A DNA stretch of 64,000 bases, from NCBI GenBank assembly GCA_030704615.1, contig CM060732.1, positions 42,408,001-42,472,000 on the forward strand. The letters run 5' to 3'. The notes below the pieces were generated by a model. That model ran no database searches and was not told where the DNA came from. It was given only the letters and a program-made list of their open reading frames with translations. This document shows positions 2,246 through 48,799 of the stretch, piece by piece. How positions within the stretch are numbered: the first letter of the stretch is position 1; every line of letters begins with the position of its first letter. This stretch comes from Takakia lepidozioides. Lineage: Eukaryota > Plantae > Bryophyta. Position numbers and translations under genes: made by a program.

Positions 2246-2249
<4 letters not shown>

Positions 2250-2279: not shown

Positions 2280-2283
<4 letters not shown>

Positions 2284-8216: not shown

Positions 8217-8249
8217 AGGAAATGTTTACATGTGAACGGAATGTGAAGA

Positions 8250-12030: not shown

Positions 12031-12280
12031 TGTCACCCTTCTCTGGTATAATGGAGGTTAGTTATTTCATGAGCATGAGCGACACGAGCGGAGTAGTAAG
12101 ACAATCGGTTTTCATGAGCAGAAGTATAAATTCTGGAAATAAAAAACATAAAAAAACATAATTTTAATGGAATGTGTCAGAAAAAAACCAAAATAATATT
12201 CATTGTTTGAAGTAGTAGTTTTGAGAGCCGTGCTCATGATATTTCATCTTCCGCTCATGCGAATTCTGAGCAACATCTGC

Positions 12281-12510
12281 AAAAATGGCGCCGAATTTCG
12301 CGGTAATAGGTTCTGCAACCGGAGAAATCTGCGACGTATTTCGCGGTAATAGGTGTCTCCGGCGAAAAATGGTACCGAATTTCGCGGCTATAGGTCTCAA
12401 CATGGCAAGTATGTAAGCCCAATGTGGCGCCGAATTTTGGTACATGGTGCCGGGGATTGCACAGATGTTGGGCAGTTCTGGGCCATGTAACTGGAAATTC
12501 GGCGCCATTT
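12281..12510. repeat. Cluster of GGCGCCGAATTT-type motifs upstream of the Ulp1 gene
   Basis: About 5 degenerate copies, e.g. AAAATGGCGCCGAATTTCGCGGTAATAGG; the last is inverted (AAATTCGGCGCCATTTT). Confidence 0.8.
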
Positions 12511-12725
12511 TTCCAGAAATGGCCCCCACAACTGCTACTGTTGGAACTCAGTTTTCTGGAAGATTTGCAAATTTTTCCTGCCACCATCTTAGTACTGTTT
12601 CGACATTGAATTGCCACTGGACGTCAATGGATATCCAGCAGTCCATAGTGTTTAAAATAGATTACAAAGTCTAATGCATAAAAATGCAATTGCAAATATC
12701 CATATGGTGGATTCCCTTTGCCCCA

Positions 12726-15700
12726 TCAATGATTTCTGGAATCCTGGCGGAGGAGTTTGTGCAGCTCGTTCACGCTCAATGCTAGTACATGAATAAAGTC
12801 ATCAATAGTCAAGTTCATCCTCAACCTCTTCAGGTAAATGTAATACAGATGCTTGCACGGATAATACTTTGACCTCTTCTTTGCTTCCATCAACGAGAAG
12901 TCCGTACAATTGCAAGTCGGCTCCACTCCGATCGTAATTGTGTAAACGTCGTCGCGTACAGCTGAGCCGGCCGTTGCCATCCGATAAACACGCCCAAGGC
13001 CGGGTGGGGGTACATCCACGGAGCTCTGAATAGTGCAAGCCATCCCAAGAGCATTGGCAATCTGAGTCTCATTCAACTTGTTGGGAGGATGTCGTCTCTT
13101 CACTCTTCCGAATCGCATTGTGGGATGTGCAGAATTGTCCAATCCGTCTCTACTGGACCGAACAGTCTGTAATGGCTGAGTCTGAGGAACTGAAAATGAG
13201 TGGGCTGGGACGTCTGTGCGTTGCACCATTCAAAATCCTGCTGCAGAAAGAGCATCAGCAGAGAGGTTGCAATCCGGTGCAACAGGCCAGACGCCCGGAG
13301 GCTCTGGCATTCCCTGAATCCCGTACTTGGGCTTGCCAAATACACAGGTCATTATGTCGTGTCTACAGAACCAAAACGTCTGCGTTGTGGCGTGAGAAAA
13401 TGTGGGAGTCAAAAATCTGTCGCTGAAACAAGGTGCAGGTATAGCACCGTGTGGGTTCCTCCGAATCATCTCACCACAGCGTGCTCTCGTATCCACCCGG
13501 ATGGCGCAGTACTTCCCTCGAAATGCCGGCAATGTCCTTGCAATTCTCCACTGTGACTCCGACACTTTTGTCTCCACAATGGGTATGTTGTACTGCGTTA
13601 CTACAGATGGCTCGTTATGTTCCTTGGGCACGTGCCCTGTGCTCAAAGGAGATGGCGATCTTGAACGTGTAGGACTTGCGGAGCTCGACGCGACCTCCTT
13701 GGGCAACATCACGGGACTACGAGGGAGCGTGCAAATATTCTTGTTAGCTCGCCATGAATCTTCTTCTCCGCCAGGTGCCTCGTCAAGTCTTCGTCTCACT
13801 GGACGGGTGTGAACATCTTCTTCCAAGTGTTGGCCTCTTCGAAGCAATGGCGTGTCCCGAAGGCCCTCTCGCAAGGCTGCCGCCCACTTCCAAGGATTCT
13901 TCGATCTGGAGGCAGTCCGCATCAGCATTTCCTGCCTGTCTGGCCCCAAGCCCCACTGTTTCCCTTTCAAGAACTTGTTGTGCCTGCATTGCTGTATAAT
14001 TGACCTCACAATGTCCTCCGTTGTGGCAGTGAGGATGTCCACCAGATGCGCCGCAGAGGAGGCACGCCAGGAAGAATGTACTGATTCGGCCATGTTTGTT
14101 GTCGGCATGTCGGTGTCGGAGTCGAGACACATTTCTTGCACATGCACATGTTGAGGTTACAAGCAAGTTACAAATAATGAGTAGCATAATATTCAACGGG
14201 ACGCGAATTCGTCCAACTCACCTCCCGCATATAGTCACCGAACTGGAGGAAACGATAATGCCACCATGCTAGCCAACTGACCATTGCTTCCTCATCTGAT
14301 TTCTTTACAACACCTGACGTTGTCCACCAAGCCCGTATACATGCAAACTGTGTCTCTGCATCATCCAAGGTGTGAGCACGCTTCCACGCAAGACACATGG
14401 AACGGTGCTCCTCTCTGAAATCTGGCGCCACGAGCCTGGTTGTGTACTGCGACAAGCTCTGCAGAAAATGGAACCCACAAGATCTCTCCTTGCCTTCCAT
14501 CAGAACATTGGGGTCTTCCCCGTACACCTTTCGGATGGCAGTCCAATTTGCTTGTGCGTTGTCCGCCCTGAAACCACGGAAATTGGGAGGGGGCAATCCC
14601 GCCCTGGCCATCTGTTCGTTTATTCCCTGTCAAAGAAGCATCTTCGATTGTGTGTCCTCTCCTTTCATCTCACAAATATCAATTGTCATGAGCATCCTGC
14701 AGTGGGTGTTGTAGACATGTGCACCCATTGTCACCCACTGGTGATTTGTAATTCGCTTGATATGGTCGAACATGACCCAACTGTTTGACAAGTCCCCACT
14801 CGTCATCCGGTGGACCAGTTCGAGCCGCTGCCAGGCCCACACGTGGACATTTTGAATACGAAACAACAATCTGCCTCAGTCCCTTGTCCTGGAAACCTAC
14901 TTCCATGAATGTAGTCATATCCACATCGTCGCTTCACCTCCAGAATGGAGTGCATATCCGAGCCACGCCCAATTTTCTGTTTGCAGGAGACAATGTGGTT
15001 TCTAACATTTGGTGAATAGACGTGGGACATTGACTCCAGCAATGCCTCCATTTCCTTCTCATCGAGAGGAACTCTGTCAGAGCCGTCTTCCAACATAATT
15101 CTGGCCAATGCCATCTTATGGGCGGCCTGCAGCTGTATCTGTTTGGGTTTGGCACCAAGTCTCAACTTAACCTCCTCCTGAACAAGCTGCTCTGCCTCGT
15201 GGGCAGCCTCCCGCGAGTTCCCCCTCGCCAATTTGTGACAATGGGAACCAATGTGTATGCAAGCTTGTGTGAGGTCACGAAAACGGTGCAACACATAGAA
15301 CTGCTTGGCATTACAAACAGACATGCAATGTGGTGGTTCTTTGCAATGCACACACTTAAATGTGGAGTTTGGAACCTTCTCCTGAGCTCGAAATGGTTGA
15401 TGAGCTGTGCCTGTCCAATCTGTCTCGTTCCTGTGATCTCTGGATTTAAAGTGGAAGCAAGTTGGGGAGAAACACCGCAACGCGCCTGCGCAAACAACGT
15501 AGCGCACCCGCACACCATCGAGCATCTTCATGCTGGTGGTTTTGGTGACGCACCAAGAATGACCGTCATGTTTCCTATCCTATCCATATCTGTCAACATT
15601 CCGGACGCCCTCGAATAGTCCGTTCGAGGAGGGAACTCAAAGAAGATATTACCGTCGACGTCTGCGGGAAGGCATGTCACGGATTTAATTGCGAACTTGC

Positions 15701-16354
15701 TGTAGTCCAGCCTAGCCAGCTCCGAGCGGTGTCTCTCCATGTGAAGCCCTCGCAGAATTTCAAGAATGGATCGAATTGTTGAGCTCGTGCTGGGAATATG
15801 ACTCCCTCGTCTGCTGATGTCCATTGAGGACTAGCTTGATCTGCAGGATGATCTTGGAACTTCCATGACCTCGTCTGAGTCGGGCAGGTTGTGAACAACC
15901 CAGTTCTTGCTCATCTTCATTGATGGGGTCGGCTCTGGATTTACTTCGTTGCGGACTTCTCTCTTTGAGGTACCCACTTTCTGATTCGCGGATTGTTTCG
16001 TGGAAGGCGCCAGGATAGAAGGCGCATTTGGCGGGCAAATGAAATCCCAACAGCCCTGTATATGACGCTGTCCGATGGTGGAACTCGCCATTTCTTGCCG
16101 TCACCGAAATCATCGTGGAGCACAACAATACTTTCGACTACAACTCCGTTTGAATCATTCCTTTCCTCCTCCAAAAATACCGACCCCGGTTTCAGGTGGT
16201 ATTGAACGTAGAGATATTTCTCCATTACCTGGCAGATCTCCCCTCTGCACGGAAATGTAGCTCTATGCTCGTGAGGAGGGCAGTACACTATAGCGCTCGG
16301 GTTTTCTACCATGGGAGATGTGCACACAAGACTGCCAGGACGACGTTCGGGCAA
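12726..16354 (-). pseudogene. MULE transposase with GCM-like DNA-binding domain, DDE core and SWIM zinc finger; frameshifted
   Basis: GCM-like Cys/His pattern (VVCAGALRC...CVHCKEPP...VCNAK...IHIGSHCH). Core MFDHIKR...FRADNAQA...CGFHFLQS...TTNMAESVH. SWIM CNCTDF...PCKHLYY. Split over several ORFs by frameshifts and a TGA at 13230. Confidence 0.8.
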
Positions 16355-17730
16355 CGCCCTGGGAGAAGGGGGGATGCAGCGAGGGGAAGGAATGCAGGGC
16401 CGTTTTTTCCGAGCGACGAAGCCTATTCATGAATCCAAAGAGCCCACTCTCCCAAAATTCCACTGTCAAAGTGTTAATGAACCTTGTCTCCGGAATGCGG
16501 CCCCTAGCATTTGCGCAATAACTACCAACAGTATGCAGTCAGAAGGTATATGACCTGTGAAGATGCGCTGCGCAAACCAATAATTACGGCGTCTGACAAG
16601 AAGCGTGGGGGGACGAGCGTGCAAGCACCTTCCCCATGGACAGAGGGAACTGACAGAGGTGGCATTCCAGTGGGTCTGATTGCAAGATTGAGTGCCAGAC
16701 CCTCGCTGCCAAAAGTCAACATTCAACAAAATGCAACATTGCACAAAAAGTGGAACTTTGGTTCAAATGAGACATTTTTATTAATAATGAACTGTGACAA
16801 GTATGCATGCCCTCACAAGGCGAGGGAAGCCAAAAATATGTATGCCATCCATGCTCAGGTAAGTTGGGAATTTTCTCCCGTGTTGCACTATTCTCACCAA
16901 GAAGTTGGAACCTCGATTGGCCTCTCAACAAGCTCATGACTGACAGGGTGTCGGTAAGTGAAGACAATGGATGCAGCCCGTTCTCCTTTCGTGTAGTGGA
17001 CAACGGTGTCATGTCCTCCGATATATGCACCATCGTAAATCGAGATCTTTGTTGTGGAGACTCTGTGTCCATAGGACTCATCCTCGTAGCTTATGAGAAT
17101 GTCCCCATAGACTGTTTGCGATGGAATCCTCTCTGGCATGTACGTACACCCGATGCAATCCTCGTAGGCCCACTGGCAGCACCTCCAATGATGTAAGAAG
17201 GCCGTGCGGCTTTTGGGGATGTTCCATGTAGGCGGATACTGTAGATCAACGATTCGCAGGCACCAAAGCCGCGCAAGCCCATCCCCGCGAGGCTAATCGT
17301 GGAAGCCATGAAGGTACTCAAGAGCGGACAGGTGCACCTTCCTTTGCTGAGAGTGGTCTATCCAATCCTGCAGGTATATGAGAATATCCCCTGACTTGGG
17401 CGAGAAGTCCCACGGGGTGAGATGCTTGTTTGGGCAGTTGTTGGGTTCCCGGCACGCCATCGCCGACTATTGAAAGGGCTGCCAGGAAGCAAAGAGGGCG
17501 CGCAGGGAAGGGGGAGTGTGGGGAAGATGAATTGAGAGGAGCTCGGAGCGAGGAAGTGTTGTTGTTGTCTCGGTTTGAAACGCGTGGGTCACGAGCGAAG
17601 GTCAGGCAAGTGGTAAAGAAAAAGAGCAGCATTTAATATAACCGTACCCAGGAATGAGGCGCAACATTTACTTCGACATAACGTCCAATCGAAGGGTGAC
17701 GGCCCCACGTGACTACTAGAGAACACCCCC

Positions 17731-18154: not shown

Positions 18155-20349
18155 CTCCTCCACCATGTTGAGCTCAATCCGCTCAGCCAGCAGAAACACA
18201 TCTGCTAATGTGGGTTGGGCTGCTTGTAACAGGGTTGCATCTCGCACCCTTCTCTTGAGCTCCTTGTCCAGAATTCCATACCAAAACTGGATTGCCTAAG
18301 CTTCAGTAACCCCTTGGGTCACACTTATCAAGCGCCTCATACGAGTGTACGCCTCTCGCAGGAGTTGTTACCATTGGATTTGGCAAGGACATGCCTGCAC
18401 AAGGCGCAGCTGCCAGCCCACAGGCACAAGGTACTACCCAACAGCGTGGTCAGGGGGGCAAGGTTTCCCAACCCAAGTTCCATGGAGCTTACAGGGGACC
18501 TCAGGTGCAGAGGCCCGTGGCATCTTTTGCAGGCCAACAGCAACCAGGGGTGGTATGTTGGACATGTGGAGGACCCCATGTCAAGAAAGATTGCCCAGAG
18601 AGTGGCAGAAGGCCGGCACAAGCACAGCCTGCACAGTTGCAGTATGGGCATTGTGGCAAGTATGGGCATGGAGATGCCCAGTGTTATGACTTGCATCCTG
18701 AGTTGCGCCCAGGCCAGTTCCAAGGGAACAATGGTGGCCGGGGGCGAGGTGGACCAGCCCAGAGAGGACGAGGTGGTCGGGCACGAGGTGCAGGCCAAGG
18801 GCAAGCTCAACATGGCCAAGGACGCGGAGGTCAGGGTATTGACCAAGGCATGGCCAACCGGCTTCAGCAGCTAGAGCAGAGGCTTGCTGCCATGGCTATA
18901 GCTTAGGCGGTACCGGCTCCCAGGCGGGATGGTCCACCTCCTGCTCCTGAGGGAGGAGATATGGGAGGCATGGGATTCATGTGCGGAGTAGCGCTACCAC
19001 TAGAGCAGGTGGAGTCTGCTGCAGCCGTGACTCGAGGAGCATCACGAGTTCCTGAGCCACGAGGTGCAGAGGTGGAATTGGATCCACAGCGTGGGGAGGC
19101 AAGCCGTTAGGCGAGGCTTCCTCAGTCATTCACATTGGCGGAGACTGTGTCGACGCCATCCATGGCACCTAGTTCTCGCCCGACTGTTACCGAGGCGGAG
19201 GTTACTATGCCATTGGGGAGAGCTACATGTGCAACACTGACACCTGCTACCAATGCTAGTGCAGTCGGTGTGTTATTGGGGGCAGCCACCTCTGTGTGTC
19301 AATCCCCACTGTTCTCGGCAACCATGATTGCGACGCCGGGGGTAAGACCAGCTGCAGTGTTTAGACTAGCAGCAACACTCTGTGAGAGTGGGGAGGTCAC
19401 TTCATCTTCTGCGGAGTTAGTGGAAGGTGTAGTGGCAGAGGGATCCTCGGATTTGAGGGTCAAGACTGCCACGGCTGCGCCATGGCAAGCTGCAGCTGCC
19501 AGGTTGATGGAGTTGCCAGCTAGGCCAGCCTTTGAGCGCGCCAAGGTGACACCTAGAGTTGTCTTGTTAGACAACCAGGATGGCATTTTCTCTTTGAGTG
19601 GACCGGCAGGCAAGAAGTACCGGCCACTTCGGGTCTTGTTGGACTCGGGAGCTCAGCCACTGATGTTGGGCAGAGCTGCTATTGCAGGTTTGGGCCTCAT
19701 GGAGGCGGATATGGAGCCTTGTCCTTTCCAGATACAGACATCTCTGGGAGGATCAGAGCAGGCTCGGGGCATAACACGGCATCAGTTGGCCATTAGACTG
19801 CAGCCGGATCATCCTATAGATGGCTCAGTGATGCGAGCCAAGGCCATTGTGACAGACGCGGTCTCTTACGATGTCCTCGTTGGTGGGGCAGTGTTATACC
19901 CCATAGGCTTCACCCTGGACTTCTGGGAGGAGTCAGCATCCTACAGGCCTGGATGGCAGTCAGGGGATGGTCGCCATGCACAGCTCCCTGTGACATTCAT
20001 TGGGGGTATTGCGGCGGCCCAACGGGGTAAGATGCCAACACTAGCCGCCTTTACAGCTGCAGTTAGTTAGCCTGAAGAGTTGCTGGAAGGCAATGCCCAT
20101 GCAGAGGATGTGCCACCTCCAGCAGAGCAGGATGACATGCATGGTACGGCGGAATTGCCTGCCATGGTTGCTCACATTCCATTATGGGGTACGAGCAAGG
20201 ATTTGCAGCAGGCTGCTGATGGACGGCTGCAACAAGCTTGGGTAGAAGCTTTCGTACCGTCAGGAGAGGGGGAGAGTGCGGTGATTGCACCAGGACCACC
20301 CCAGTTGTCGCCATTGGACACCACACCTCTTGTGTGGCAGCGGCCGGAT

Positions 20350-21300
20350 GAAGGCATATGCCTTCTGGACTTGTTTGGCGGGATCAGCACTGGATTGGTT
20401 GCAGTGCTGCAGGCAGGTGTACGAGTTCGATGTTACCTGTATGTGGAGAAGGATGAGACTGCACAACGCGTCTCACTGCGCCATGTTGCTCAGATGGTGC
20501 AGCAGTACCCTGAGTTGTTGCCGGTGTCTGCAGTTCGTGGATATCAGCAGGCCTTGCCAGCAGACATTGCGTTGCTGGGGGCGCATGATTTGGAGCAGGT
20601 TGGCTCCATTGATCTGGTAGTGGCAGGTTGGCCCTGCCAAGGGCATTCATCAGCCGGGCATGACAATGGATTGCGAGACTCAAGGACGGGTCTGTTTTGG
20701 GAGATGGTGCGGGTTTTGCGCCACTTGCAGCTTCATCAAGCTGTATCTCCAGCATACATCTTGGAGAATGTGCCACTGATGGGCGATTCTCGGGCCAGGG
20801 TGATGGCCAGTGTGCATCAAGTCCGGTCGTGGCTTGGGTCAGCAGTGTTGCTGGATGCAGCTGCAGTGGGGTCACGGGCTCATCGTCCACGGCTATGGTG
20901 GACTAACTTGATGCCACCCGCACTGCTCAAGCGTGCATTTGATGGGGTGCAGCGGCCAGCACACCTCACAGTGGATAGCATTTTGGACACAGGGAGGTAG
21001 TCTCAACGTGTGAGACACGATGACCGTTCGCCTTTGGCAGTGGTCAACAGGGTGGGTCAACCACGAGCAGCATTACCTACACTGCTCAGCTTCCCAGGAT
21101 CCCATGCTTTTCGGGATGGTGGACCTGGCCTCTTGTGGGATAGCCAGTTGCAACAATTAGTGGAGCCCAATGCTAACGAGCGCGAGCGGGCGATGGGTTT
21201 TACCACTGGTACCACGGCGGTGCCATCTCTTTCTGAGGCATCACGTCATCAGGTGTTGGGGCAAGCAATGGATTTCAATTGCTTGACCTAGATTATCAGC
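20350..21300 (+). pseudogene. DNMT3-like C5 cytosine methyltransferase domain embedded in the Gypsy polyprotein
   Basis: Motif I LDLFGGISTG, II YVEKD, IV AGWPCQG (20632-20640), GLFWEMVRVL, VI ILENV (20764-20772), VIII AHRPRLWWTN, IX ERERAMGF..GTT, X RHQVLGQAMD, in canonical non-permuted order. TAG stops at 20998 and 21289. Confidence 0.93.
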
Positions 21301-24300
21301 TTGGCTATGGCTGAGCAGCCCAGAGTGCAAAGTACACTTCCTTTCATGGTCTCCCTGCCTACCGAGATGGTACAGGCAGCGAGTGGGGGCGAGCAAGTGA
21401 GGACCACGAGGTGCAGGCCGCATCCATGGCACATGTGGGAGGTGCTCGAGGTTCAGAAGGAGTTGGTAGCCAAGGCGGCGGTGATGGATCAGGTTGGGGA
21501 TTTTTCTCGGGTTGAGGAGGTCCTCAAGGATGGGATGATGGGGCAGGATGAGACATTGTCACTGACAGAAGAGGCAGTGGTCACTACTCAAGAGGTTGGA
21601 GCATAGCAACCACGGGACGCGTCTTCTACCTCTAAGCCTGCTGGACTCAAGGTTGCAATCACGGAGGACAATTGGGAGCCTGACGTTGGACCCATTGTCA
21701 CCGGAGGATAGAGACGACGTATACGGCGGTTCCTGAGGGCTTACATGAATTGCTTTGCCTTCAGTTTGAAGGACTTAGGAGCACTGAAGGGTCAAGAGAT
21801 TCGCATTGAATTGGCTACTGACACGCCAATCTTTCGAAGACCCTATAGATATAGTGACATGGAGAGGTCCTTGATTCAGATGAGAACTCAGGACCTTTGG
21901 GAGGTTGGTTTGGTGGAGCTATCTGGGGGAGAGTATGCTTCAGCCACAGTGATGCCAGCCAAGAAGGATGTCTATGGCAATTGGATGGAGAGACGTATGT
22001 GCGGTGATTACCGGCCTGTAAATCGTCAGACCAAGTCCGATAGGTATGCCATGCCGACACCAAAGGAGATCTTTGATGCCATTGGGCATGCCAAGGTCTT
22101 TAGCACATTGGATTTACGATCCGGATATCACCAGTTGCCGATCAAGGAGGCGGATAAGCAAAAGACGGCATTCTGGGGGATCAATGAGCACGGGAAGGAT
22201 TGCCTATACCAGTGGCGATTATTACCATTTGGGCTTAAAAACGCTCCTGCTGAGTTTCAAAGAGTCATGGACAGGATTCTAGCAGGGGTGGAGTTTGCTC
22301 GGTGCTACATAGATGACATCATCATCTTTAGTGCTACAGTGGAGGAGCATGAGAGACACCTTCAGGGGGTATTTGAGCGCTTGAGGGCGCACGGATTGAA
22401 GTTATATCCGGGAAAGTGCAAGTTTTTCCACAACCAGATTGAGTATCTGGGTCACATGATATATCCTGGAGGATTGGGGGTACAGCAGACTAAGGTAGAG
22501 TCCATTGCACAGGTTCCACGCCCCACGGATGTGAGCCGAGTTCAAGCTTTCATGGGGTTAGCAAACTATTATAGACGGTTTGTTAAGGAATTTAGTGCCA
22601 TTGCAAAGGCTCTAACCAAGCTGACCAAGGTGGACCAGGAGTGGCAGTGGGAAGATGAGAAAGAACAAGCTTTTCAAAAGCTCAAGGCGAGGTTGACCTC
22701 GGCGCCCATCTTGAGACGGCCTATTAGGGGGCGTCCTTTACAGCTGCATACAGATTGGAGCATGCTGGGGCTTGGAGCGGTGCTCACACAGGTGGATGAT
22801 GAGGGAAGAGAGTTCGTAGTGGCTTATGCTAGCTGCTCGAACAACGTTGCAGAGTCTAAGTATAGCTCATATGAGGGAGAATGCTTAGCTGCAGTGTGGG
22901 CCGTGGCACACTTCAGGTGCTGTCTATACGGCAATCTCTTCACCCTTGTCACGGATCACCAACCACTCAAGTGGTTGATGGAGTCAGACAAGCTTACGGG
23001 GAAGCTTGCACGGTGGGCACTCATCCTTCAAGAATATGACTTTCAGGTTGTGCATCGACCGGGTTTGGTCAATCGCAATGTAGATGGGTTGAGTCGCAAT
23101 CCATGCACGAGCCAGTAGGATGACACTGGAGCTCGGTGGCATGGTGAGACGGACGAGGAGATGGTGCCCGGATGGCATGCATCTGCATTTCTGTGTATCT
23201 TGGCAGCGGAAGGCCAGGTTGGACCTGCAACAGGGATGACTGTAGATCAAGTGTCTGAGGACCCTGAGGCCAGCAATGAGCAAGGTGACGCTAAAGATAT
23301 ACATGAGGATTCAGTTGTATTGGACTACCTCCGCACTGGAGACACTGCAACCACTGTGACTGCCAAGGAGAGGGATCGGATCCTACAACGAGCCAAGAGG
23401 TTCAAGTGGGAGGGGACACACTTGCTCCGAGTGTGGGAGGATGGTCGAGTAAGGATTGTGCCTCACCCAACACAGCGGGCACGGTTAGTGCGGCATGCCC
23501 ACAAGGAGTTGGGGCATTTTGGAGTGCGACGCACTCATAGGCTACTGCAGGGGCAGTATTGGTGGCGTGGTATGCACACAGAGGTGCAACAATTTGTGGC
23601 TAGGTGCATGGTGTATGACAGGGTGCGTGCTTCATTCAACGCCCCTACTCCACAATTGCACCCTCTTCCGATCATGGGATTGGGCTACAGGTGGAGTCTT
23701 GACTTCGCAGGGCCGTTGCTACTGACCATGCGCCACAACAAGTACGTGTTGGTGATGGTGGAGCACTTCTCCAAGTGGATTGAGTTGGTTCCATTGCCTG
23801 ATAAGGCTAGTGAGGGAGCTGCGTATGCATTCTTGGATTGTGTGCTTAGCCGATTCTGTGCTCCAGCTGAGGTACTCACGGACCAAGGGAGAGAGTTCTT
23901 GGGGGAGTTTCAGGCTTTGTGTGACAAGGCCTTGATAGACCACCGCACCACTTCTCGGGATCATCCTGAGGCCGATGGCTTGGCAGAGAGAGTTGTTCAG
24001 ACAGTAAAGAGGGGTTGCGCAAGTATGGCTTGCAGAAGGGACACCTAGGAGATTGGGACCTTCAGTTATCCTGGTTAGCCATGGCTACAGGTTCAGCAAG
24101 CAAGCATCACTTGCCTCCTTCTCACCATACTTTCTTCTCTTTGGCCGAGAGCCGGATTTGCCTACATCCATTCGCAGGGAAGCTGCTACAGTTCTTAACC
24201 TTGACGATCCAGACGTGTGGGCACGTGCATGTGAGCAGCGTGCAGAGTTGTTCAAGAAAGTCATGCCCATGGCTTTCGAGAACCTTGCCATTGCACAACA

Positions 24301-24595
24301 CCGTGATACGTTGAGGTATGCTACCATACGTGGTGGGGGCTATCGTCCTGGGGTTCGGAGATTCAACCCTGGTGACTATGTCTATCTGCAGCAGACTGCT
24401 CCTACGACCTTGGATGTGACTGCAGAACGTGTTATTTTGAGGGTTCGAGAGGTCTTGCCCTCAGGCGTCTTGGTCTTGGAGGGTCGGGATGGCATAACTT
24501 GGAAGGACCATGTGTGTAATTGTGCGCCATGTCACCTTTCGAATGTTGATGGCAGGATTGACCCAAACCTGGCAGTGGTATCTGCAAGTTTGAGG

Positions 24596-24730
24596 TGCAT
24601 GTTGTGTGGGTCTGCTAAAGGGGCAGCCACCATGCTGGTGTGTGATCGATGCTCTAGAGGTTGGCATATGGGATGCTTGACTCCACCTCTTGAGATGGTT
24701 CCGGATGGGGATTGGTTATGTCCACAATGC
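24596..24730 (+). other. PHD finger at the C-terminus of the integrase
   Basis: C4HC3 pattern CMLC...MLVCDRCSRGWHMGCLTPPLEMVPDGDWLCPQC. The same domain is in copy 3 (about 41144-41281, minus). Confidence 0.93.
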
Positions 24731-24999
24731 ATTGGATAGTGGGAGTGGATACAACCATGGGAGGCTAACAAGAAATGCAAGGCCAAGCTACTAGGAGACC
24801 TTGAACACACGAGATCCGGGCTCAAGTTCACAGATTGCAAGACGGCGACTAACGATGGGGCTATTCTTGTACCCGGCCTCTTGGTCTACAGAGTTTGAGT
24901 ACAACAGGGCCAGTGATAGAGGACTTAGTACGGCTGTGGCTATTACATCTTGTAGCTATCTGGAGTTAGAGGGACCTATCCACCAGCTAGGGGGGCGAT

Positions 25000-25535
25000 T
25001 GTGGCAGATTACTTTATTGTGCATATATGTGTGGTGTGGTTTAGGGTTTAGGGTTTAGGGATGTAGTTGTGTAGTGATACGTATGCGCACGACAGCTGTC
25101 AAGTTAAATAAGCACAGTGTGAAACTAACTAGAATAAGCTAGTTATTTGTATTTAACACTTGGATTTAGATCAAGTGTTAAATCAGGTGTCAAGTTTAGT
25201 TTGACACCTGAACCGTCTTATCTTCACGAGAGCGTCAGTTGCGCAGCTCATCTCTCTCGAGTTGAGCCTGCGCGACCGAGCTCCTTCATCGTTTAGAACT
25301 GAGTGTACTTATGATGGGAGGATAGGTTGTTGTGGGGTGGAGTCCCCATAGCTTGGGGTGCCCCTGGCTCGACTATTATCTGAAAGAGTGATGATGAGAT
25401 GGATTTCATGTTTCTTGTGTTAAGAGTGTGTTCTTAGCTTTTCTTATCATTGTGGCAGACTACTTTATTGTGCATATATGTGTGGTGTGGTTTGGACAGC
25501 GATGTAGTTGTGTAGCGATACGTATGCGCATGACA
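25000..25535 (+). repeat. 3' terminal repeat of Gypsy copy 1 with A-B-A structure (A 25000-25094, B 25097-25450, A' 25451-25535)
   Basis: Starts TGTGG right after the PPT and ends TGACA. TGTGGCAGA(T/C)TACTTTATTGTGCATATATGTGTGGTGTGG occurs at both 25000 and 25451. Confidence 0.85.
25040..25060 (+). repeat. Interstitial plant telomere repeat (TTTAGGG)3
   Basis: Three perfect units, absent from the paralogous A' segment. Confidence 0.9.
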
Positions 25536-26800
25536 CATTCTTCAACCCAAACGGTAGGAACTTCCCATGTTGGTCAATCCCCCAGAATGCCGTCTTTTGC
25601 TTGTCAGTCTCTTTGATTGGCAACTGGTGGTAACGGATCGCAAGTCCAATGCGTTAAACATCTTTGCATGCCCAATGACATCAAAGATCTCCTCTAGAGT
25701 TGACATGACATATCTATCAGACTTAGTCTGACAATTCACAGGCTGATAGTCCCCACACATCATTCTTTCTGTCCAATTGCCATAGATATCCTTCTTAGCC
25801 GGCATCACCATTGCCAAGGCATACTCCCCGCCTGACAACTCCACCAATCCAACTTCGAACAACTCCATAGTCCGTGATTGGATCAATGACCTCTCCATGT
25901 CAATATACCGGTAGGGCATTCGAAAAATTGGTGTGTCACTTGCCAAATCAATACGAATTTTTTGGCCCTTCAAACTCTCTAAATCCTTCAAACCAAAGAC
26001 AAAGCAATTTCTATAAGCCCTTCGAAATTGTTGGATTCTCCGTCTCTCTCCTCCGGTGACTGTAGGTCCAACATCTGGTTCCCAGTTGCCCTCAGTGACT
26101 GCAACCTTGGGTACACCAGGCTTGGAGGTAGGAGACGCATCCTTTGGCGTAGCCTCCACTTGCTCCGCCATAGCCACATTGAGAACATCCTCCGCAAAAG
26201 AAACATCCTCAACCTCTTCAAGAGCCTTGGCCACCTTGGCCTCCAACTGATCCTCCGTGTATGGCTCTCCTCACTCTTCATACTGCTGCTTGAGAGATCC
26301 AATGACTCTCTCTTTCCGCATCTCATCCCAAATCTGCCATGGGTGTTTGCACTCCATGATCATGTGCTCGCCCCCACTCACTGCCTCAACCGTCCCGGTT
26401 GGGAGAGATGATGCAATACCAAATTGGAGTGCAGAAGTAGCCACCACTGTCTGCAACCTCCGTTGCTCAGCCATGCACAAGCTAATGATCCATGTCAAGC
26501 AATTTAGATCCATTGTTTGACCCAACACATGTCGGCGTGATGCCTCTGACAGAGCTGACACAGCTGTAGTACCTGTGACAAATCTCATTGCCCGCTCTCG
26601 TTCATCCGTATTGGGCTCCACCAATTGTTGTAGCACACTGTCCCAAATCAACCCAGGATCATTGTCTCGAAAAGCATGAGATGAAGGAAAACTCATGAGC
26701 GTAAGTAATGTCGCACGTGGCTGCCCCACTTGATTGACCACTAGAGGTGGACGGTCATCATGTCGCACCCTCTGTGGTTGCCTCCCTTGGTCCAAAATGC
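25536..26800 (-). mobile_element. DNMT-Gypsy copy 2 fragment (methyltransferase C-terminus, linker, RT N-terminus)
   Basis: ORFs 26271..26795 (ERERAMRF...RHVLGQTMDLNCL) and 25542..26246 (TPIFRMPYRY...CGDYQPVN) are colinear with 21010-22240. Confidence 0.92.
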
Positions 26801-31086: not shown

Positions 31087-34000
31087 TCACACAATCCGGG
31101 TGCCATCAGACCTTTCAAACTCCTTGCGGGTATATACTCGCCAGCTGGTATCCATAAACTCTAAGACATGAGTGTGATATTTGAGTAGAGATGTCCTATG
31201 TCCGACTGATACATAGGTCTCAATTTTGTCTTCTAAAAGGGAGTACAGGCGTGACTCATTAGCAGCATCAAGAGCACTGCTTGCCTCATCCAAAAAGGCC
31301 ACTTTTGGCCGATGCAAAATAAGCCGGGCGAAAGCCATTCGCTGCTGTTCTCCGGAGCTCAACACATTGGACCAATCGCAGACTGCAGATAGCCCTCCAA
31401 TGCGTGAGGGAAGGTCCTTTAATGACACCTCTTCCAAGACATTCAAGAGATCCGTGTCAGTCAGGTTGTAATTTGATGGAGAATTCTCTGCTGATGGGAA
31501 AAGAAGCTGTTCCCGGAGAGATCCCAGTGGCATGTAAGGCTTCTGGGGGAGGAAGAAACCATCATCAAGAGGAGCTTGCACAATTCCACTGCCACGGTTC
31601 CACAGGCCAGCTATGGCTCGCAACAGTGATGACTTGCCGCAGCCTGAAGGGCCCATTACCAGTAAAGACTCTCCTGGTGCCAAATGAATGTTGAGGTCAC
31701 GGAATAGCACGCAATGTCCATTTGGGGTCACCAGTGACAGGTCTTTCAAGAGTAGGCCTGGTCCTTCCTCTCGAGTAATACGTCCTGCACGAGGCATCAG
31801 ACAGTGAGTTTGAGTGTCATGGACACTGTAAGATGATGTTTTGCACTCCACAGCACTCTCCATACCTTATGACATCGAATTAATACAGAGTGTTCCAAAG
31901 GATACCAGAGTCAGTTGCATTCACCAATATAGTCTTCTCCACTACTAGAGCCGGCGTTCACCAATGGGTAGTGGCCCCATCCTGCTTTACCTGGGGTCCC
32001 TGTTCACTACTGCCTCTATATTAATGTGACTCAATTGTAGGGCCTAGCCACAAGTCTTATGAGTACATTTTCTCTCTCAGCAAAGGCAGTCCGTTCCCTC
32101 TTGTTCTGCCCAAACTGGGCGCAGGGTCTATGCCCACAATGCTACAGCAAACAAGGTCTTAAGATAACCTTCTCTCTCTCAGGCAAGAGATAACACATGT
32201 AGTGCTCCAATTACGGAGCAAAGGAGCCAAACAGGCAGGGACATTGTGAACAGACCAGAGGGGATGGTGCCTGCCACAAGGCTCAAAAGGGGACTGGCCC
32301 CGTCATCACCCTCAATAGAAAGCGATACCCCTGAGTTAGAACGCAATGTTTCTCCATTCCTCAAGCCAAGGTCCCCACTGTGGTCCTCCAAAGCTCCCAG
32401 CAGACTATCCAGCCTCTCTGTCTGAGCTGCAAGACCACTGCAACACACCAACATGAGTTATCTTAGCTTATGAGTATGCCTTGCAGACTCGTGCGTTGTT
32501 CCATGAGAACCACTTCTATACACGAAACTTGGGATTACTAGCTTTTTTCATGGGCACCTTCCCAGTTTAAAAATTATCACCAGAGAGGAGGCAAGTTAGC
32601 ACAACAAAAAGGGAATAGGAGGAGGGGGCGAGGGGCAGGAGGATAGATGCTTAAAGCTTACATGGGTGCTGTTGCCTTCAAACTTGAGGAATAGGCACCC
32701 TTGTGTAGATGAGATTTGCAGCATGCAGCTGCTGACTATGACTTAAGTTTCAGAAAATGAAGGTGGGCTAGGTACTACCATTTACTACATTTGGACACGA
32801 GGTGTTAACTTATCTTTATAGATTGAGGGTATTTAGAAGCACAAGATCCTTCAGGGTTTTCACAAGTTCTAATGTACGGCGGGTAGATTCCTAAATCCAT
32901 TGAGGATAGACCCTCTAGAAAAACCCGAGAGATTCCTACCTTAGGCCATCAAACTTGAGCACAATCACTGAGAGAGCTGCCAAAATTCTGTGGAAAGCAA
33001 AGCCGGTTTGTGAGATCACACCAAACTCCACCTGCCCAGTGCAACCACAGCAACATATGACTCGTCTGTGTGAAGCTACAGGAGTACTATACCAACTTCT
33101 GCAATGAATACTATGTTCCCTAGATAATATCAAAGCCAGCCATTACATCAATCTTCAGTTCCATGCAGCCAGATTCTAGTAGGTTGCATGGAGGTTACGA
33201 TCACAACAGGCTGATCATACCCTGATAGATAGTTAGCCTGTCAGGGATATCCTCGTGGATGTGTTTGCTAGGAAATCATCACCCAAAACCCTCTGATTTT
33301 CTGTGTCTACAGTGTCTGTGGGCCCTCTGGGAGAGATGGGAAGGGTACCTGGCCAGAAAAGTAGCGGGGCGCAATGATAATGGACGGAACCATTATAATG
33401 GAGAACTCGTAGGCATTGCTGAACAATGAAAGGTGGCGGTTCCACGTTATAAGCTCCCTCACATTTGCCACCAAGGCCGCCAAAAAGGTCTAAACCACAG
33501 TATTTAAGGAAACACAACACACCATGAAACAAACTCTGGAAAGATGGCAGTAAGGATTCAAATGAACCTCTTTTAAGAGCTGGAGAATGGTCCAGCCACT
33601 CAACTGTAGATAAGGAGAAAACAAATTCTCTATATTGCACACCCTCAGAGACAAGCTCTTCCTGTCCTAAGTTTCTCTCTCTCTGCTCTTTGCTCTTGCT
33701 CTCAGAATTTCTTTGAAATTGGGAAGATATGTGTGTTCAACATGTCGCTCTCTCCACTCTCATTCTCTCTTGTCGATGGGCCCTCGGGGGTCCATGTAGA
33801 CATTATGAGGTTTCTTTTTGTGTGTGTGAGTGTGTGTATTGTACCTTTATGGTCACAGCCTCATGTCCCTCACCACGATAGAACGCAATGGATTCCACAT
33901 TGTCACGCACGCGAACGAGCGAGTAACGGAGATCTGCCTCCTTTTGCAGTGCCTGCAACAAAAAAGATGTACATCTAGAAGATTCAATCTGAGCCCATGA

Positions 34001-37940: not shown

Positions 37941-39273
37941 CTTTATGGCTCTCCTCTCTCTCTCTCTCCTTTCTAGCTCACGCTCATGCAATGAGCAGCG
38001 ATCTCTCTCTCTCCCTCTTCTTTCTTGATCACGCTCATGCAATGAGAAGCTCTCTCCCTCTCTCTTTCTGTGAACAGACAAACCAATTCCTTAAGCTTTG
38101 GATCTTCCCTTATTCCTCTCGCCCAGTACTAGTAGGCAGCTGCTGGACCTACGCGTTTTCTAACTTGTAGAAAATCTCTCCCTCTATCTCACTCTCCTAG
38201 TGCTGCCACCGAGAAGAACAGCAAACAGTGCAGCCTAAGCAGCGAACAGCCAGCCTGCTTCCTCTCTCTCTCTCGCTCTCTCTTTCTCTCTCTCCATTTC
38301 GCAGTCAATACAAATGTGACAAGCTGGCACATGAGGCCGCGTCGTGTGGATGTAACTAGAATCTACAGTTGGAATTTCATCAGTACCGTCAACTCATCCA
38401 ACGTGGGTTTCTTTTCTACTCTGCCCCATGAAGTTGCCCAAAAATATGAGGAAACCCTAATGGACGTGGAAGGAGATGCCAGACGGGAAGTAAAAGAACT
38501 CCCCTCAAGTACTAACTACTAACATCTATTCCAGAAATATTAATGTCATTGAAGGATTCTTGAAGGGCAACCCTCAGCAGCCTAAGAATACTAACGTCAT
38601 ACGATTTCATATGCAATTTGACCCGCACTATCATTGCCGCTACATGTTTTTTTCTATTTTAGATTTATATAAAGGGAATCACCTGGGAGCGACAGCTCAC
38701 AAATCAGGCCCCTTCATCTATGTTCCATTGCAAATGAACAAGCCTACCGTGTAGATTTCTATGATTGTTCTGGAGCACTTTGTATTTCGGGAAGCCTGTA
38801 AATTTCCGTTAGCATAAATTCTTCTGGACACATTGCAAAATTTCATTTGGTCATGTCCAAAGAATGGGCTATTGTGCACAGGGTTCCCAAGCCTGGAGGT
38901 CCTGGAATTTGCTTGGCCTTTGCTTTTTGCTTTTGCAAAAAATGCCTACCTTCTTCGACTGGGTTTAGGTACCGCGTGGGCATGTGCACAGAAGCGGAGA
39001 TTAATAGTATATATACTCCTGAACGATTTTGAGAATCTTCTACAACGAGTCGAAAATACGCTCCCATGACAAAAATGCCAAAATTATTTAAAAATTAGTT
39101 CTGAATATACTACAGCAAAACAAAAATACGATGACGCAAAAAAACTTGCACAGGGGGTTGGTATACTGCATGCTCACGTGAGCACGCTCACGCTCGCGTG
39201 ATCACAACCCACGGTCATGGGAGTTTTATGTTTTTAAACCTCGGGCATATGAGTTCTATGTTTTCGAAACGGA

Positions 39274-40871
39274 TGTCATGCATCTAAGCATCGTGCCACA
39301 ACATACATTGTTGTCCACCACACAATCCTAGAAAGCTATACCACAATGATAAGAGATGAGAAATGAGAGAAGTAGAAGACAATGAAAGCTCTCAAAGCAT
39401 GAAGCAATCACATGAAGAACAAGCCCTAGTCCTTCCAAGTGAAATCCACTCTATCACATAAACTAAATCAAGCCAAGGGCACCTTTGCTAAAAGAATCCA
39501 CACTACAAAGCCCTCAACACACTCCCTCTCAATACCTAGAGCTATGGAGGTGAGAGAAGCTCATGGAGGCTCAACTACAAGAAGATGAGCCTCTTAACAC
39601 TCACAAAGGGAAAACCTATCCCCTTGTCCCATGTGAGGCTCAACACCTCACTTGGCATGTGAGACCAAATGAAATCCCAACACACAAAATATAAATATAA
39701 ATATCTAAAATATCCTAGTTAACTAGAAATAGGTAATTCTAGATAACCATGACTAAAACCATGACAGTTGTCGTGCACCTAAGCATCGTGCCACAACATA
39801 CATCGTTGTCCACCACACAATCTAAGCACACAATCCTATAAAGCTATACCACAATGATAAGAGATGAGAAATGAGAGAAGTAGAAGACAATGAAAGCTCT
39901 CAAAGCATGAAGCAATCACATGAAGAACAAACCCTAGTCCTTCCAAGTGAAATCCACTCTATCACATAAACTAAATCAAGCCAAGGGCACCTTTGCTAAA
40001 GGAATCCACATTACAAAGCCCTCAACATACTCCCTCTCAATACCTAGAGCTATGGAGGTGAGAGAAGTTCATGGAGGCTCAACTACAAGAAGATGAGCCT
40101 CCTCAACACTCACAAAGGGAAAACCTATCCCCTTGTCCCATGTGAGGCTCGACACCTCACTTGGCATGTGAGACCAAATGAAGTCCCAACATATAAAATA
40201 TAAATATAAATATCTAAAATGTCCTAGTTAACTAGAAATAGGTAATTCTAGATAACCATGACTAAAACCATGACAGTTGTCGTGCACCTAAGCATAGTGC
40301 CACAACATACATCGCTGTCCACCACACAATCTAAGCACACAATCCTATAAAGCTATACCACAATGATAAGAGATGAGAAATGAGAGAAGTAGAAGACAAT
40401 GAAAGCTCTCAAAGCATGAAGCAATCACATGAAGAACAAACCCTAGTCCTTCCAAGTGAAATCCACTCTATCACATAAACTAAATCAAGCCAAGGGCACC
40501 TTTGCTAAAGGAATCCACACTACAAAGCCCTCAACATACTCCCTCTCAATACCTAGAGCTATGGAGGTGAGAGAAGCTCATGGAGGCTCAACTACAAGAA
40601 GATGAGCCTCCTCAACACTCACAAAGGGAAAACCTATCCCCATGTCCCAAGTGAGGCTCGACACCTCACTTGGCATGTGAGACCAAATGAAGTCCCAACA
40701 CATAAAATATAAATATAAATATCTAAAATGTCCTAGTTAACTAGAAATAGGTAATTCTAGATAACCATGACTAAAACCATGACAGCTGTCGTGCACCTAA
40801 GCATCGTGCCACAACATACATCGTTGTCCACCACACAATCTAAGCACACAATCCTAGAAAGCTATACCACA
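39274..40871 (-). repeat. Terminal repeat array of Gypsy copy 3: A-(B-A)3 with 509-bp period
   Basis: Unit junctions ATGACAG(T/C)TGTCGTGC at 39761, 40270 and 40779. On the minus strand it begins TGTGG after the PPT (40873-40882) and ends TGACA at 39274. Confidence 0.92.
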
Positions 40872-42740
40872 ATCGCCCCCCTAACTGTTGATTAGATCCC
40901 TCTAACACCGGATAGCTGACAAGTATCCATCCCAATAAGATCATCGCTTGGTCATCAATAGCCCAAGTCCCAGTATCTAAATGCAATAGATCAAGAGGTC
41001 GGGTGCAAAAGTAGCCCCATCGTTACTCGCCTTCCTACAATCCATGGCTTCAATTCGGTGTCCATGGCATCGAACTCCCGTTAGCTAGACCTTGGATCAC
41101 TTGTCAACCTCGCCACTGTCATGCCCCACTACCTCTATCCAATGCATCGTGGACACAACCATTCTCCACTAGGAACATCCTCAAGTGGCGGTGTCAAGCA
41201 TCCCATGTGCCACCCCCTTGAACATTTGTCACACACCAACATGGTCGCGACACCACCCGCATGCCCACATAGCATGCAACGCAACCCTGCAGGTACCACT
41301 GCAAGGTTGGGATCTATCCTCCCATCCACATGTGGAAGGTGACATGGCGCACAATTGCGCACATGGTCCTTCCATACCATGCCATCTCGACCCTCCAGAA
41401 TCAACACTCCTGAATGCAACACCTCCCGGACCCTTAGAATCACACGACCTGCTGTGACATCCAAGGTCGTAGGCGCTGTCTGTTGCAGATACACATAGTC
41501 CCCAGGATGGAAACGCCGAACACCTGGCCGATATCCCTTTCCACGTATAGTGGCGTACCTCAATGTGTCTCGGTGTTGGGCAATAGCAAGGTTCTCAAAA
41601 ACTATAGGCATGACTCTCTTGAACAAATCTGCCCGTTGGGCACATGTTTGTGTCCACACATCCGGATCATCAAGGTTGAGGACTACTGCAGTCTCCCTGC
41701 GAATAGATGCAGGCGAATTTGGCTCTCGGCCAAAGAGAAGGAAATAAGGCGAGAACGAGGCAAGTGATGCTTGTTTGCTAAACCTGTAGCCCATGGCCAA
41801 CCAAGGTAGCTGAAGGTCCCAATCTCCCAAGTATCCCTTCTGCAAACCATACTTGCGCAAACCTCGCTTGACTGTTTGCACAACCCTCTCGGCCAAACCA
41901 TCAGGCTCGGGATGATCCCGAGAAGTAGTGCGGTGATCTATCAAGGCTTGCTCACACAAAGCCTGAAACTCCCCCAAGAACTTTCTCCCCTGGTCCGTGA
42001 GTACCTCGGCTGGAGCACCAAATTGGCTAAGCACTCGATCTAAGAATGCATACGCAGCCCCCTCACTTGCCTTGTCAGGCAATGCCACCAGTTCAATCCA
42101 TTTGGAGAAATGTTCCACCATCACCAGCACATACTAGTTATGGCGAATAGTTAGTGGCAATGAGCCTGCGAAGTCAAGACTCCAACGATAGCCCAAACTC
42201 ATAATGGGTAAATGATGCAATTATGGAGTAGGGGCGTTGAAAAAAGCCCGCACTCTATCACACATTTATAATCATGAGCTACGAGGTGACACATACGACT
42301 ATTTGGCCTCCCTGTTTTGTCGAGACAGGATGTCCGCTGTCAACATCTTTGGAGGCGTCATGTTCACGTACGCCCTTCATGTAAGTGTAAAAATTGTTTG
42401 CATTTTAAATACTTTTTTTACATTTTTGTTCGATCACGTCCTCTGTTTTACCGACTGGCTTTATCTGCAGGCAAGAAACATTCGAGTGCTTGACATCAAC
42501 CACTCAACCAAAAAAACTTTTTGCAAAGAAAAAGTTGAAGCGAATTTTAAGAAGCTTCAAATTGAGAATGACAATGTTGCTGAAGAGGTTGACGGCGGAG
42601 ACGATGCATCTTGCCACTAACTGCTGCACATCCGTGTGCATACCTCGCCACCAATACTGTCCTTGTAGCAAACTATGAGTGCGCCGCACCCCAAAATGTC
42701 CCAACTCCTCATGGGCATGGCGTACCAATCGCGCTCGTTG
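40872..42740 (-). mobile_element. Gypsy copy 3 fragment: integrase-PHD and 3' UTR
   Basis: The 331-aa ORF 41135..42130 is highly similar to 23750-24739. The upstream zinc-finger piece lies at 42603-42740, displaced by 42266-42602. Confidence 0.92.
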
Positions 42741-43065
42741 TGAGGATGGGGAAGTGGAGGATGAAGATTTGGAAGAAGGAGGAGGACATTCCGAACACAG
42801 GGAGGAGGACGAGGGCATCGAGGGTAACGAGGACAACGAGGGCCACGATGGAAACAATGCAGACCCTTGGGTGGCTGGACACATTGATGTGATTCAGCAC
42901 TTCAGAACTCAATCATTGGATGGACTTGAGAACACCATGCAAGACGTTGCGGTCCACAAGGTCGTGATTTTGGACGGGGATTCGTTGAGTTCAAGCGAGA
43001 GAACTGCGAGTAATCTTCCTCAAGGGGTGGCGGGGCCAGCTCAATCGAGGTGGGCGGCAATCTAG
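42266..43065 (+). pseudogene. 3' end of an unidentified gene with an acidic tail, possibly a hAT transposase C-terminus
   Basis: TYDYLASLFCRDRMS, an intron, then ARNIRVLD and a D/E-rich tract. Weak resemblance to the hAT dimerisation region. Confidence 0.3.
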
Positions 43066-47229: not shown

Positions 47230-48771
47230 TAGGTGGGTCCAGGAGTGGCAGTGGGAGGAGGAGCAAGAGGAAGCCTTTGAGGAACTCAAGGCTCGATTGA
47301 CTTCTGCACCTATTCTGAGGAGGCATATTCGGAGGCGGCCTTTCCAGCTACATACGGATTGGAGTATGCTGGGGATTGGAGTAGTGCTCACACAGGTGGA
47401 TGACGAGGGAATAGAGTTCGTAGGCATATGTCAGCCGCTCGAACAATGATGTCGAGGCGAACTATAGCTCATATGAAGGGGAGTGTCTAGTTGCGGTATG
47501 GGCAGTGACACATTTCAGATGCTACCTCTATGACAACCTCTTCACCCTTATCACGGATCACCAACCATTGAAGTGGTTGATGGAGTCAGACAAGTTTACA
47601 ATGAAGCTTGCACGGTGGGCACTTATGCTTCAAAAATACGACTTCCAGGTGGTACATCGAGCCGATATAGTCAATCGGGATGCAGATATGTTGAGTTGTA
47701 ATCCATGCACGAGCGACCATGATGATACTGGAGCTCGGTGACATGGTGAGACAGATGAGGAGATGGTGCCAGAATGACATGCATCTGCCTTTTTGTGCAT
47801 CCTAGCAATGAGAGCTCAAGCTAGTCTATCCCATAGGATTGGTCATGTAGATAGTGTGCATGACGATTCGGAGATCAGTGAGGAGCTTGGTGGTGCTAAG
47901 GATGTGCATGAAGATACAACAGTGTTGGTTTACCTTTGTACATGAGAGACAGCAGCCAGTGTGACTACTAAAGAGAGAGATCGGATCCTACAACGAGTCA
48001 AGAGGTTTAAGTGGGAGGGGACTCACCTACTCTGAGTATGGGAGGATCGACGAGTGAGGATTGTGCCTCATCCAACTCAACGAGTGCGATTGGTACGCCA
48101 TGCCCATGAGGAGTTGGGTGTGGCGCACTCATAGTTTGCTGCAAGGACAGCACTGGTGGCGAGGCATGCACACAGATGTGCAACAATTAGTGGCAAGGTG
48201 CATGGTGTGTGATAGAGTGCGGGTTTTTTCCAATGCAACTACTCCACAATTGCATCATTTATCCATTATGGGTTTGGGCTATCGTTGGAGTCTTGACTTC
48301 GCAGGCCCATTGCCACTAATGATTCGCCATAACAAGTATGTGCTAGTGCTAGTGATGGTGGAACACTTCTCCAAATGGATTGAACTGGTTGCATTGCCTG
48401 ACAATGCAAGTGAGGGGGCTGCTTATGCATTTTTAGATCAAGTTCTTAACCGATTTGGTGCTCCAGCCGAGGTACTCACGGACCAGGGGAGAGAGTTCTT
48501 GGGGGAGTTTCAGGCTTTGTTGTGAGCAAGCCTTGATAGACCACCGCACTACTTCTCGGGATCATCCCAAGGCTGATGGCTTGGCGGAGAGAGTTGTTCA
48601 GACAGTTAAGAGAGGCTTACGCAAGTATGGCTTGCAGAAGCGACACTTAGGAGATTGGGACCTCCAGCTACCTTGGTTGGCCATGGGCTGCAGGTCTAGC
48701 AAGCAAGCATCACTTACCTCGTTCTCACCTTATTTTCTTCTCTTTGGCCAAGAGCCAGATTTGCCTACATC
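47230..48771 (+). mobile_element. Gypsy copy 4, part 1 (RNase H to integrase core), degenerate
   Basis: Colinear with 22630-24168 (LHTDWS, TDHQPLKWL, SLDFAGPLP, LAERVVQT). Many stops. Confidence 0.92.
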
Positions 48772-48799
48772 GATGTAGGCAAATCTGGCTCTTGGCCAT

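Follow-up and report, generated by a model that had tools for sequence, protein, structure and literature searches.

A conserved, likely leaky stop codon parts a DNMT3-type methyltransferase from reverse transcriptase in a Ty3/Gypsy retrotransposon family of bryophytes

Takakia lepidozioides, a moss, carries in a stretch of 64,000 nucleotides of contig CM060732.1 (assembly GCA_030704615.1, positions 42,408,001 to 42,472,000, forward strand; hereafter the window) a decayed copy of a Ty3/Gypsy retrotransposon whose family encodes a DNMT3-type DNA cytosine methyltransferase (DNMT) between protease and reverse transcriptase (RT). Here, we show that the family is built of two open reading frames (ORFs) in one frame, Gag-protease-DNMT and then RT-RNase H-integrase-PHD, with a conserved in-frame stop codon between them. 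The stop is likely leaky, and RT, integrase and PHD finger would then be made only by readthrough. Because the conserved stop lies between the methyltransferase and RT, the DNMT belongs to the abundant first ORF and not to Pol. On balance we lean towards a reading in which the enzyme is made and packaged at the level of Gag and likely methylates the element's own complementary DNA (cDNA) before integration.

Frame +1 of the window copy, between 18310 and about 24010, contains the gag knuckle region, protease, methyltransferase, RT, RNase H and the core of the integrase, and apart from the inserted DNMT the gag-protease-RT-RNase H-integrase order of Ty3/Gypsy is present. An initial annotation, made from the sequence alone, had described a land-plant Ty3/Gypsy element with a DNMT3-like domain between protease and RT. 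The Pfam domains and their order bear this out, and all four families that it had named for checking (DNA_methylase, RVT_1, rve and PHD) are matched. It had also proposed a single reading frame from 18391 to about 24015. The domains do share frame +1, but eight TAG stops interrupt it, and one of these, at 21604-21606, is conserved and makes two ORFs of the supposed polyprotein. Tyrosine recombinase, the hallmark of DIRS/PAT elements, gave no match in an intact copy, where rve and H2C2 match instead. The coding features of the window copy are:

18155..18361, minus strand: inverted gag piece at the rearranged 5' end (tblastn with the Marchantia P0002 gag, 76%; tblastx to loci L063 and L027)
18362..18903, plus strand: C-terminal part of gag, with a CCHC-type knuckle CWTCGGPHVKKDC at about 18556-18597 (50-54% identity to Marchantia gag knuckle regions)
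19582..19989, plus strand: aspartic protease, LLDSGAQ at 19636 (Pfam gag-asp_proteas, E 0.02)
20353..21294, plus strand: DNMT3-type C5 cytosine methyltransferase domain, motif I at 20365, PCQ at 20632, ENV at 20764, with two decay stops (DNA_methylase, PF00145, E 3.4e-14)
21604..21612, plus strand: conserved in-frame amber stop in CAR-YYA context (TAG CAA CCA), predicted readthrough site ending ORF1 (Gag-protease-DNMT)
21727..22569, plus strand: RT, YIDD (RVT_1, PF00078, E 9.5e-32)
22627..23109, plus strand: RNase H (RT_RNaseH, PF17917, E 1.3e-33)
23467..24570, plus strand: DDE integrase with HHCC, core and C-terminal tail, two frameshifts at about 24010-24085 (Integrase_H2C2, PF17921, E 5.7e-15; rve, PF00665, E 1.5e-12)
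24596..24730, plus strand: PHD finger at the integrase C-terminus (PF00628, E 2.3e-11)

This copy is dead. Its 5' end is lost, with the inverted gag piece in place and both the remainder of the gag N-terminus and the 5' repeat A absent (no second copy of repeat A occurs anywhere in the 64-kb window), and the two frameshifts separate the integrase core from its tail and the PHD finger, a region that is unbroken and in a single frame in L069 and L070. Seven of the eight stops are decay, since they are sense codons in most alignable relatives, although for one of the seven the comparison covers four loci only. All eight, between 18904 and 23118, are TAG; for the seven non-conserved ones this would be consistent with C-to-T decay of methylated positions. 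The gag knuckles noted in the initial annotation are recognisable as a CCHC-type region by identity to relatives, which do match PF00098, but the window copy itself has no zf-CCHC match in Pfam. The protease scores more firmly in relatives (E 2e-4 in the intact L070, 1e-8 in P0021).

By sequence and modelled fold the methyltransferase is of the DNMT3 type, with DNMT3A/B as best match rather than DRM, DNMT1, DNMT2 or bacterial enzymes. In a profile search of the PDB with 20 family sequences, DNMT3A/B/C came top (83-69 bits), ahead of DRM (55-43) and of DNMT2 and bacterial enzymes (at most 35; HhaI 30). A structure model was made of the uninterrupted relative P0069 (pLDDT 83), which is 69% identical to the aligned window stretch and stands in for the interrupted window domain; all listed Foldseek matches are DNMT3A/B/C, at 20-23% identity and with a best E of 8e-17. 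Identity to the best DNMT3A/B matches by sequence and fold is 21-23%. The motif order I-IV (PCQ)-VI (ENV)-VIII-IX is unpermuted, as had been stated at the outset, and lacks the circular permutation that marks DRM. The domain is also intronless, being collinear with uninterrupted relatives, and it keeps its catalytic motif residues; the motif IV cysteine and the S-adenosylmethionine-binding, ENV and motif VIII residues are retained in both architectures of the family (see below). Motif IV reads PCQG wherever it was read in the stop-bearing clade, and ECQ in many elements outside it (P0021, P0030, P0062 and others). The host plant enzymes PpDNMT3a/b likewise have an unpermuted DNMT3-type catalytic domain and add a C-terminal DUF3444 (PMC6453930), for which the element has no Pfam match. 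In the ESM Atlas a streptophyte PF00145 cluster comes out nearest, but phage clusters tie with it at 0.96, which makes the result uninformative.

The ratio of nonsynonymous to synonymous change (dN/dS) in the methyltransferase, a check proposed in the initial annotation, points to purifying selection at about 0.1. In comparisons of subfamilies or intact copies for which dS is defined, it is 0.07 against two Sphagnum-type copies (L018 and L009), 0.11-0.13 three further times and 0.22 once; five comparisons are saturated at synonymous sites. Within one subfamily, decayed copies give 0.53-0.89.

A shared endpoint, about 80-130 residues past the last methyltransferase motif, is seen in many homologs and is explained at the level of DNA. 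The junction was surveyed in the best 80 of 153 metagenome loci, picked by methyltransferase match, a choice that biases DNMT content (59 of 60 RT matches have a DNMT upstream). The junction between methyltransferase and RT is spanned by 55 of the 80 loci. Both domains are in one frame in 40 of these, every one of which has the stop, and the remaining 15 are frameshifted (hand count). When the Sphagnum-type subfamily is aligned as DNA, all 55 junctions read as a stop (36 TAG, 19 TAA) and none as sense. L070 is open from 976 to 8227 save for a single stop, TAG CAG TTA at 5083, giving ORFs of 1369 and 1047 codons, and L069 is likewise open from 2477 with the single stop TAG CAA TCA. The strict CAR-YYA context, which is the readthrough consensus of the tobacco mosaic virus type (PMC2194720), is found at the junctions of the window copy, L027, L069 and L070/L071; as background, 5 of the window's 1423 TAGs and 93 of the 17,889 in the loci have it. 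The spacer between methyltransferase and RT measures 288, 333, 354, 405 or 414 nucleotides depending on the subfamily, and the differences are always whole codons. The stop-bearing elements form one clade (support 0.99) among relatives that have a single ORF.

Readthrough, unlike splicing or re-initiation, would be expected to leave spacers of whole codons, here in five length classes, and a conserved CAR behind the stop. That ORF2 is instead reached by splicing, with the TAG as 3' splice site, or by re-initiation, seems very unlikely to us. A TAG can serve as acceptor, in Sphagnum-type copies a U-rich run precedes it and an ATG follows two codons past the CAA, and within the stop clade five NCBI gene models, apparently spliced around the junction, are the only proteins that continue into RT or RNase H. 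These models, however, bypass the junction in differing ways, and neither a U-rich tract nor a nearby ATG is present at the junctions of the window copy, L027, L069 and L070. Under splicing or re-initiation, too, the DNMT would sit in the abundant first ORF. The TAA junctions were considered as an active sublineage and rejected, since for 13 of the 19 TAA copies the nearest neighbour carries TAG and CTA sites show an average C-to-T change of 0.136. The TAA variants look like decay and do not decide between readthrough and splicing. In-frame stops between two ORFs are known from the retroelements MuLV (murine leukaemia virus), Tca2 and SIRE1, where they lie at gag/pol or pol/env (PMC2194720), whereas the stop described here lies behind the protease and a captured enzyme, directly before RT. 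The family resembles the group of tobacco mosaic virus-type signals and in-frame-stop retroelements in its CAR-YYA context and also in having no conserved downstream fold: RNA folding behind the stop gave no signal in four of four sequences (z -0.39 to -1.45).

If readthrough operates, the rest of the life cycle can be sketched. Ribosomes would very probably pass the stop a few percent of the time (readthrough in MuLV is 5%; PMC2194720), yielding many-fold more DNMT than RT and integrase. The protease would then probably free an active enzyme inside the particle. Synthesis of cDNA offers a substrate that was already proposed in 2018 (PMC5890265), and the chances seem to us about even that many enzyme copies would methylate the new cDNA before integration, so that the insertion arrives marked like host transposon DNA. 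The PHD finger, more speculatively, might steer the integrase to chromatin that lacks H3K4 methylation. The solved structures closest to it are those of CHD4, PHF12, KDM5A/B, ATXR5, DPF3 and PHF21A, and the PHD fingers of CHD4, KDM5 and PHF21A bind H3 tails unmethylated at K4.

Several points weigh against this sequence of events. At the junction itself, Sphagnum-type stops are nearly always followed by CAA CCC, one letter off CAR-YYA, L065 reads TAG TAG CCA, and a second copy in the window has no stop at the homologous place; the Marchantia ORF1 ends are known at the protein level. Readthrough, enzyme activity and self-methylation of cDNA are all things that we infer from sequence, and the saturated dN/dS comparisons belong here as well. 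CG depletion beyond that of the host is not seen, the observed/expected ratio being 0.50 in the window copy, 0.55 in L070 and 0.70 in L069 whereas three stretches of host coding sequence range from 0.31 to 0.46. Methylation by the host after insertion fits the mutation spectrum (CTG 0.29, CAG 0.23, CCG 0.21, CG 0.20). Finally, no methylation was obtained in yeast with the Klebsormidium enzyme, an outcome that its authors called inconclusive (PMC5890265), and the methyltransferase of the present family diverges faster than RT (dN 0.21-0.26 vs 0.15-0.19).

The missing CG footprint in intact copies would suit an abundant enzyme that acts outside the particle, in the nucleus, on host chromatin, the target site or resident copies, be it for copy-number control or for damping rivals, with architecture and readthrough unchanged. 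Synthesis at the level of Gag would moreover supply enzyme well beyond what a single cDNA seems to require, and in the second architecture the DNMT adjoins the integrase, which fits a role near integration. We nevertheless consider action outside the particle unlikely, since the PHD finger is on the integrase and not on the DNMT, which leaves the enzyme without a recognisable targeting module, and since proteins of a Gag precursor are normally packaged in long terminal repeat (LTR) elements. The faster divergence and the inactivity of the Klebsormidium enzyme in yeast could also mean that the DNMT fold persists with little or no need for catalysis, serving the particle in a structural role, in nucleic-acid binding or as a decoy for host silencing proteins, and ORF1 does normally encode structural proteins. 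The retained catalytic and cofactor-binding residues in both architectures speak against this, as does the activity of two SymbioDIRS Dnmt3 domains in yeast (PMC5890265), and such a role appears quite unlikely.

The terminal repeats form a second departure from an ordinary LTR element. The element had been taken to end at 24739, whereas its right end is at 25535, and the additional stretch holds a split repeat:

24989..24998, plus strand: polypurine tract-like run directly ahead of repeat B1 (same position in L058, L063, L038 and L076)
24999..25094, plus strand: repeat B1, GACA end (82% to B2; junction GACA-GC-TGTC)
25097..25449, plus strand: repeat A2, TGTC start, its 5' partner A1 missing in the window copy (placed as in four full-length relatives, with B1 before and B2 after it)
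25450..25535, plus strand: repeat B2, right end of the element (...GACA)

An ordinary pair of identical LTRs is absent, and all four full-length relatives (L058, L063, L038 and L076) have split repeats in the layout A-coding-B-A-B, with A of about 339 and B of about 113 nucleotides and TG...CA ends; the 3' end is B-A-B in all seven copies in which it is complete. Target duplications of 4 bp are clear in L063, L076 and L038 and probable in L058. In these relatives the A-coding-B-A-B layout thus goes with integration as by a DDE integrase, which leaves such duplications at TG...CA ends. Since the polypurine tract precedes B, reverse transcription would define the LTR as B+A, but it is at the internal palindrome GACA-NN-TGTC that the integrated ends and the target duplications fall (window 24989-25535 and the same four relatives). 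The layout looks like a circularly permuted two-LTR molecule. Three units of the plant telomere type, TTTAGGG, lie inside repeat B1 (25040-25060) and are absent from B2.

Named relatives of the methyltransferase region are gene models of Marchantia polymorpha (up to 72-76%), M. paleacea, Calypogeia fissa, Riccia sorocarpa, Sphagnum fallax and S. troendelagicum, with Haematococcus lacustris at 35-36%; the names come from 67 matches in one search and the best 120 of 266 in another. No vascular plant was among the matches listed, which is no proof of absence, and no match listed was named Klebsormidium. Marchantia holds full-length first ORFs: in the P0002 cluster of 18 members, 5 of the 15 listed are M. 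polymorpha proteins of 1278-1281 residues, which end 85 residues after the methyltransferase. A profile search returned 534 clusters at E 1e-30 or better. Contigs of four sequencing runs cover the element, at a depth that is no copy number, and 13 weak matches in viral contigs (24-53% over short stretches) were not used. The separate methyltransferase and RT trees suggested in the initial annotation agree with each other, for the family members that they cover. The 23 elements with the DNMT before RT are one clade in both (1.0 and 0.997). The DNMT lies between RNase H and integrase in 65 of the 88 proteins that have both methyltransferase and RT (for example P0061, P0062, P0064 and Haematococcus lacustris); named members of this second architecture are chlorophyte only, and we found no description of it in the literature examined. 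It is tempting to join these observations into a wider proposal, which we advance only tentatively: the clade would have moved its recoding site behind a captured DNMT3, an active enzyme at capsid abundance would deliver copies fully methylated, the association would be ancient in green plants, with one domain order of streptophyte and one of chlorophyte type and full-length first ORFs in M. polymorpha, and integration would proceed via a palindrome inside the element's own LTR.

Elements of this kind have a precedent, which the initial annotation had named correctly. KnitGypsy-Dnmt3 of Klebsormidium nitens (de Mendoza et al. 2018, PMC5890265) likewise combines Gypsy domains with an unpermuted, intronless Dnmt3-type domain in its coding region, is likewise under purifying selection (here 0.07-0.22 between subfamilies) and has DIRS-like A-coding-B-A-B repeats. 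The conserved stop and the split repeats that link the present element to that kind had both been missed. The hosts differ, a land plant here and an alga there, and in KnitGypsy-Dnmt3 the DNMT is placed in the Pol ORF, with no mention of a stop, readthrough or a PHD finger in the available parts of that paper, whereas here it shares the frame of RT but the conserved stop puts it in ORF1. The proposed kinship is one of architecture. SymbioDIRS-Dnmt3 of Symbiodinium (PMC5890265) also has a Dnmt3 domain in a retrotransposon, split repeats and two domain orders, but is a tyrosine recombinase element, in contrast to the DDE integrase and 4-bp target duplications found here. The EpiLTRs of Cymbomonas and Euglena (bioRxiv 10.64898/2026.05.21.726589) also combine an LTR element with a chromatin reader and a cytosine methyltransferase. 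Their enzyme is related to DNMT4 and accompanied by DAM and a chromodomain, whereas ours is DNMT3-like and neither DAM nor a chromodomain gave a match; the preprint itself sets EpiLTRs apart from streptophyte Gypsy-DNMT3. In their accessible text, the preprint and PMC12344493 cite the Klebsormidium kind only as 'streptophytes', and their supplementary trees could hold land-plant sequences. No such element is described in the accessible parts of PMC6317226, PMC6453930, 10.1101/2021.02.12.428880, PMC11982613, PMC8226300 and PMC5009743, and those of the REXdb paper mention neither PHD nor methyltransferase. Our search, with subscription papers and repeat databases outside its scope, found no land-plant description of Gypsy-DNMT3 and no account of the stop. 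The impression that no embryophyte case had been described thus holds for the literature searched, although the kind itself was known from the alga; as far as searched, the novelty appears to lie in a range that takes in land plants and above all in a recoding site placed behind the methyltransferase.

What a transposon gains from carrying an enzyme that silences it has been an open question since 2018, in algal hosts that are hard to work with. With the family in mosses and liverworts, and several annotated full-length first ORFs in M. polymorpha, the question moves into a genetic model in which function is testable. The conserved stop is itself a functional clue, because selection appears to hold the enzyme at the level of structural proteins rather than of RT. 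Counts of bryophyte DNMTs may also include these transposon gene models, some of which are annotated as DNA (cytosine-5)-methyltransferase.

The window holds further fragments of the family:

25522..26800, minus strand: second, diverged family copy, a fragment from the DNMT C-terminus to the RT N-terminus, without a stop at the homologous place and with a TGA further upstream (tblastn 61%)
39269..42742, minus strand: 3' part of another family copy (integrase, PHD) with a B-A-B-A-B-A-B tandem repeat end
47231..48774, plus strand: RNase H-integrase fragment of another family copy

A 509-bp tandem array at 39269-40910 (minus strand) is the 3' repeat B-A-B-A-B-A-B of the second of these. Elsewhere, a run of ORFs at 8418-16500 (minus strand), with an Ulp1-like protease at 8418-8918 and unclassified, transposase-looking frames at 13230-15579 that have no convincing Pfam match, is possibly a decayed DNA transposon. 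Two ORFs at 44023-46395 (plus strand) have weak NIF (FCP1-like phosphatase) matches, lie near 469-580 bp tandem repeats at 48829-51328 and are perhaps transposon-borne. An ORF of 634 codons at 2991-4892 (plus strand) has no Pfam match, and there are an ABC transporter exon at 31090-31866 (minus strand) and a copia-type integrase fragment at 53919-54371 (minus strand). The host itself is represented by an ABCB transporter gene with introns at 56137-63557 (minus strand), which in a quick tree, with 30 rows selected among 120 matches, groups with mosses (SH-aLRT 98), outside Sphagnum and Ceratodon (85).

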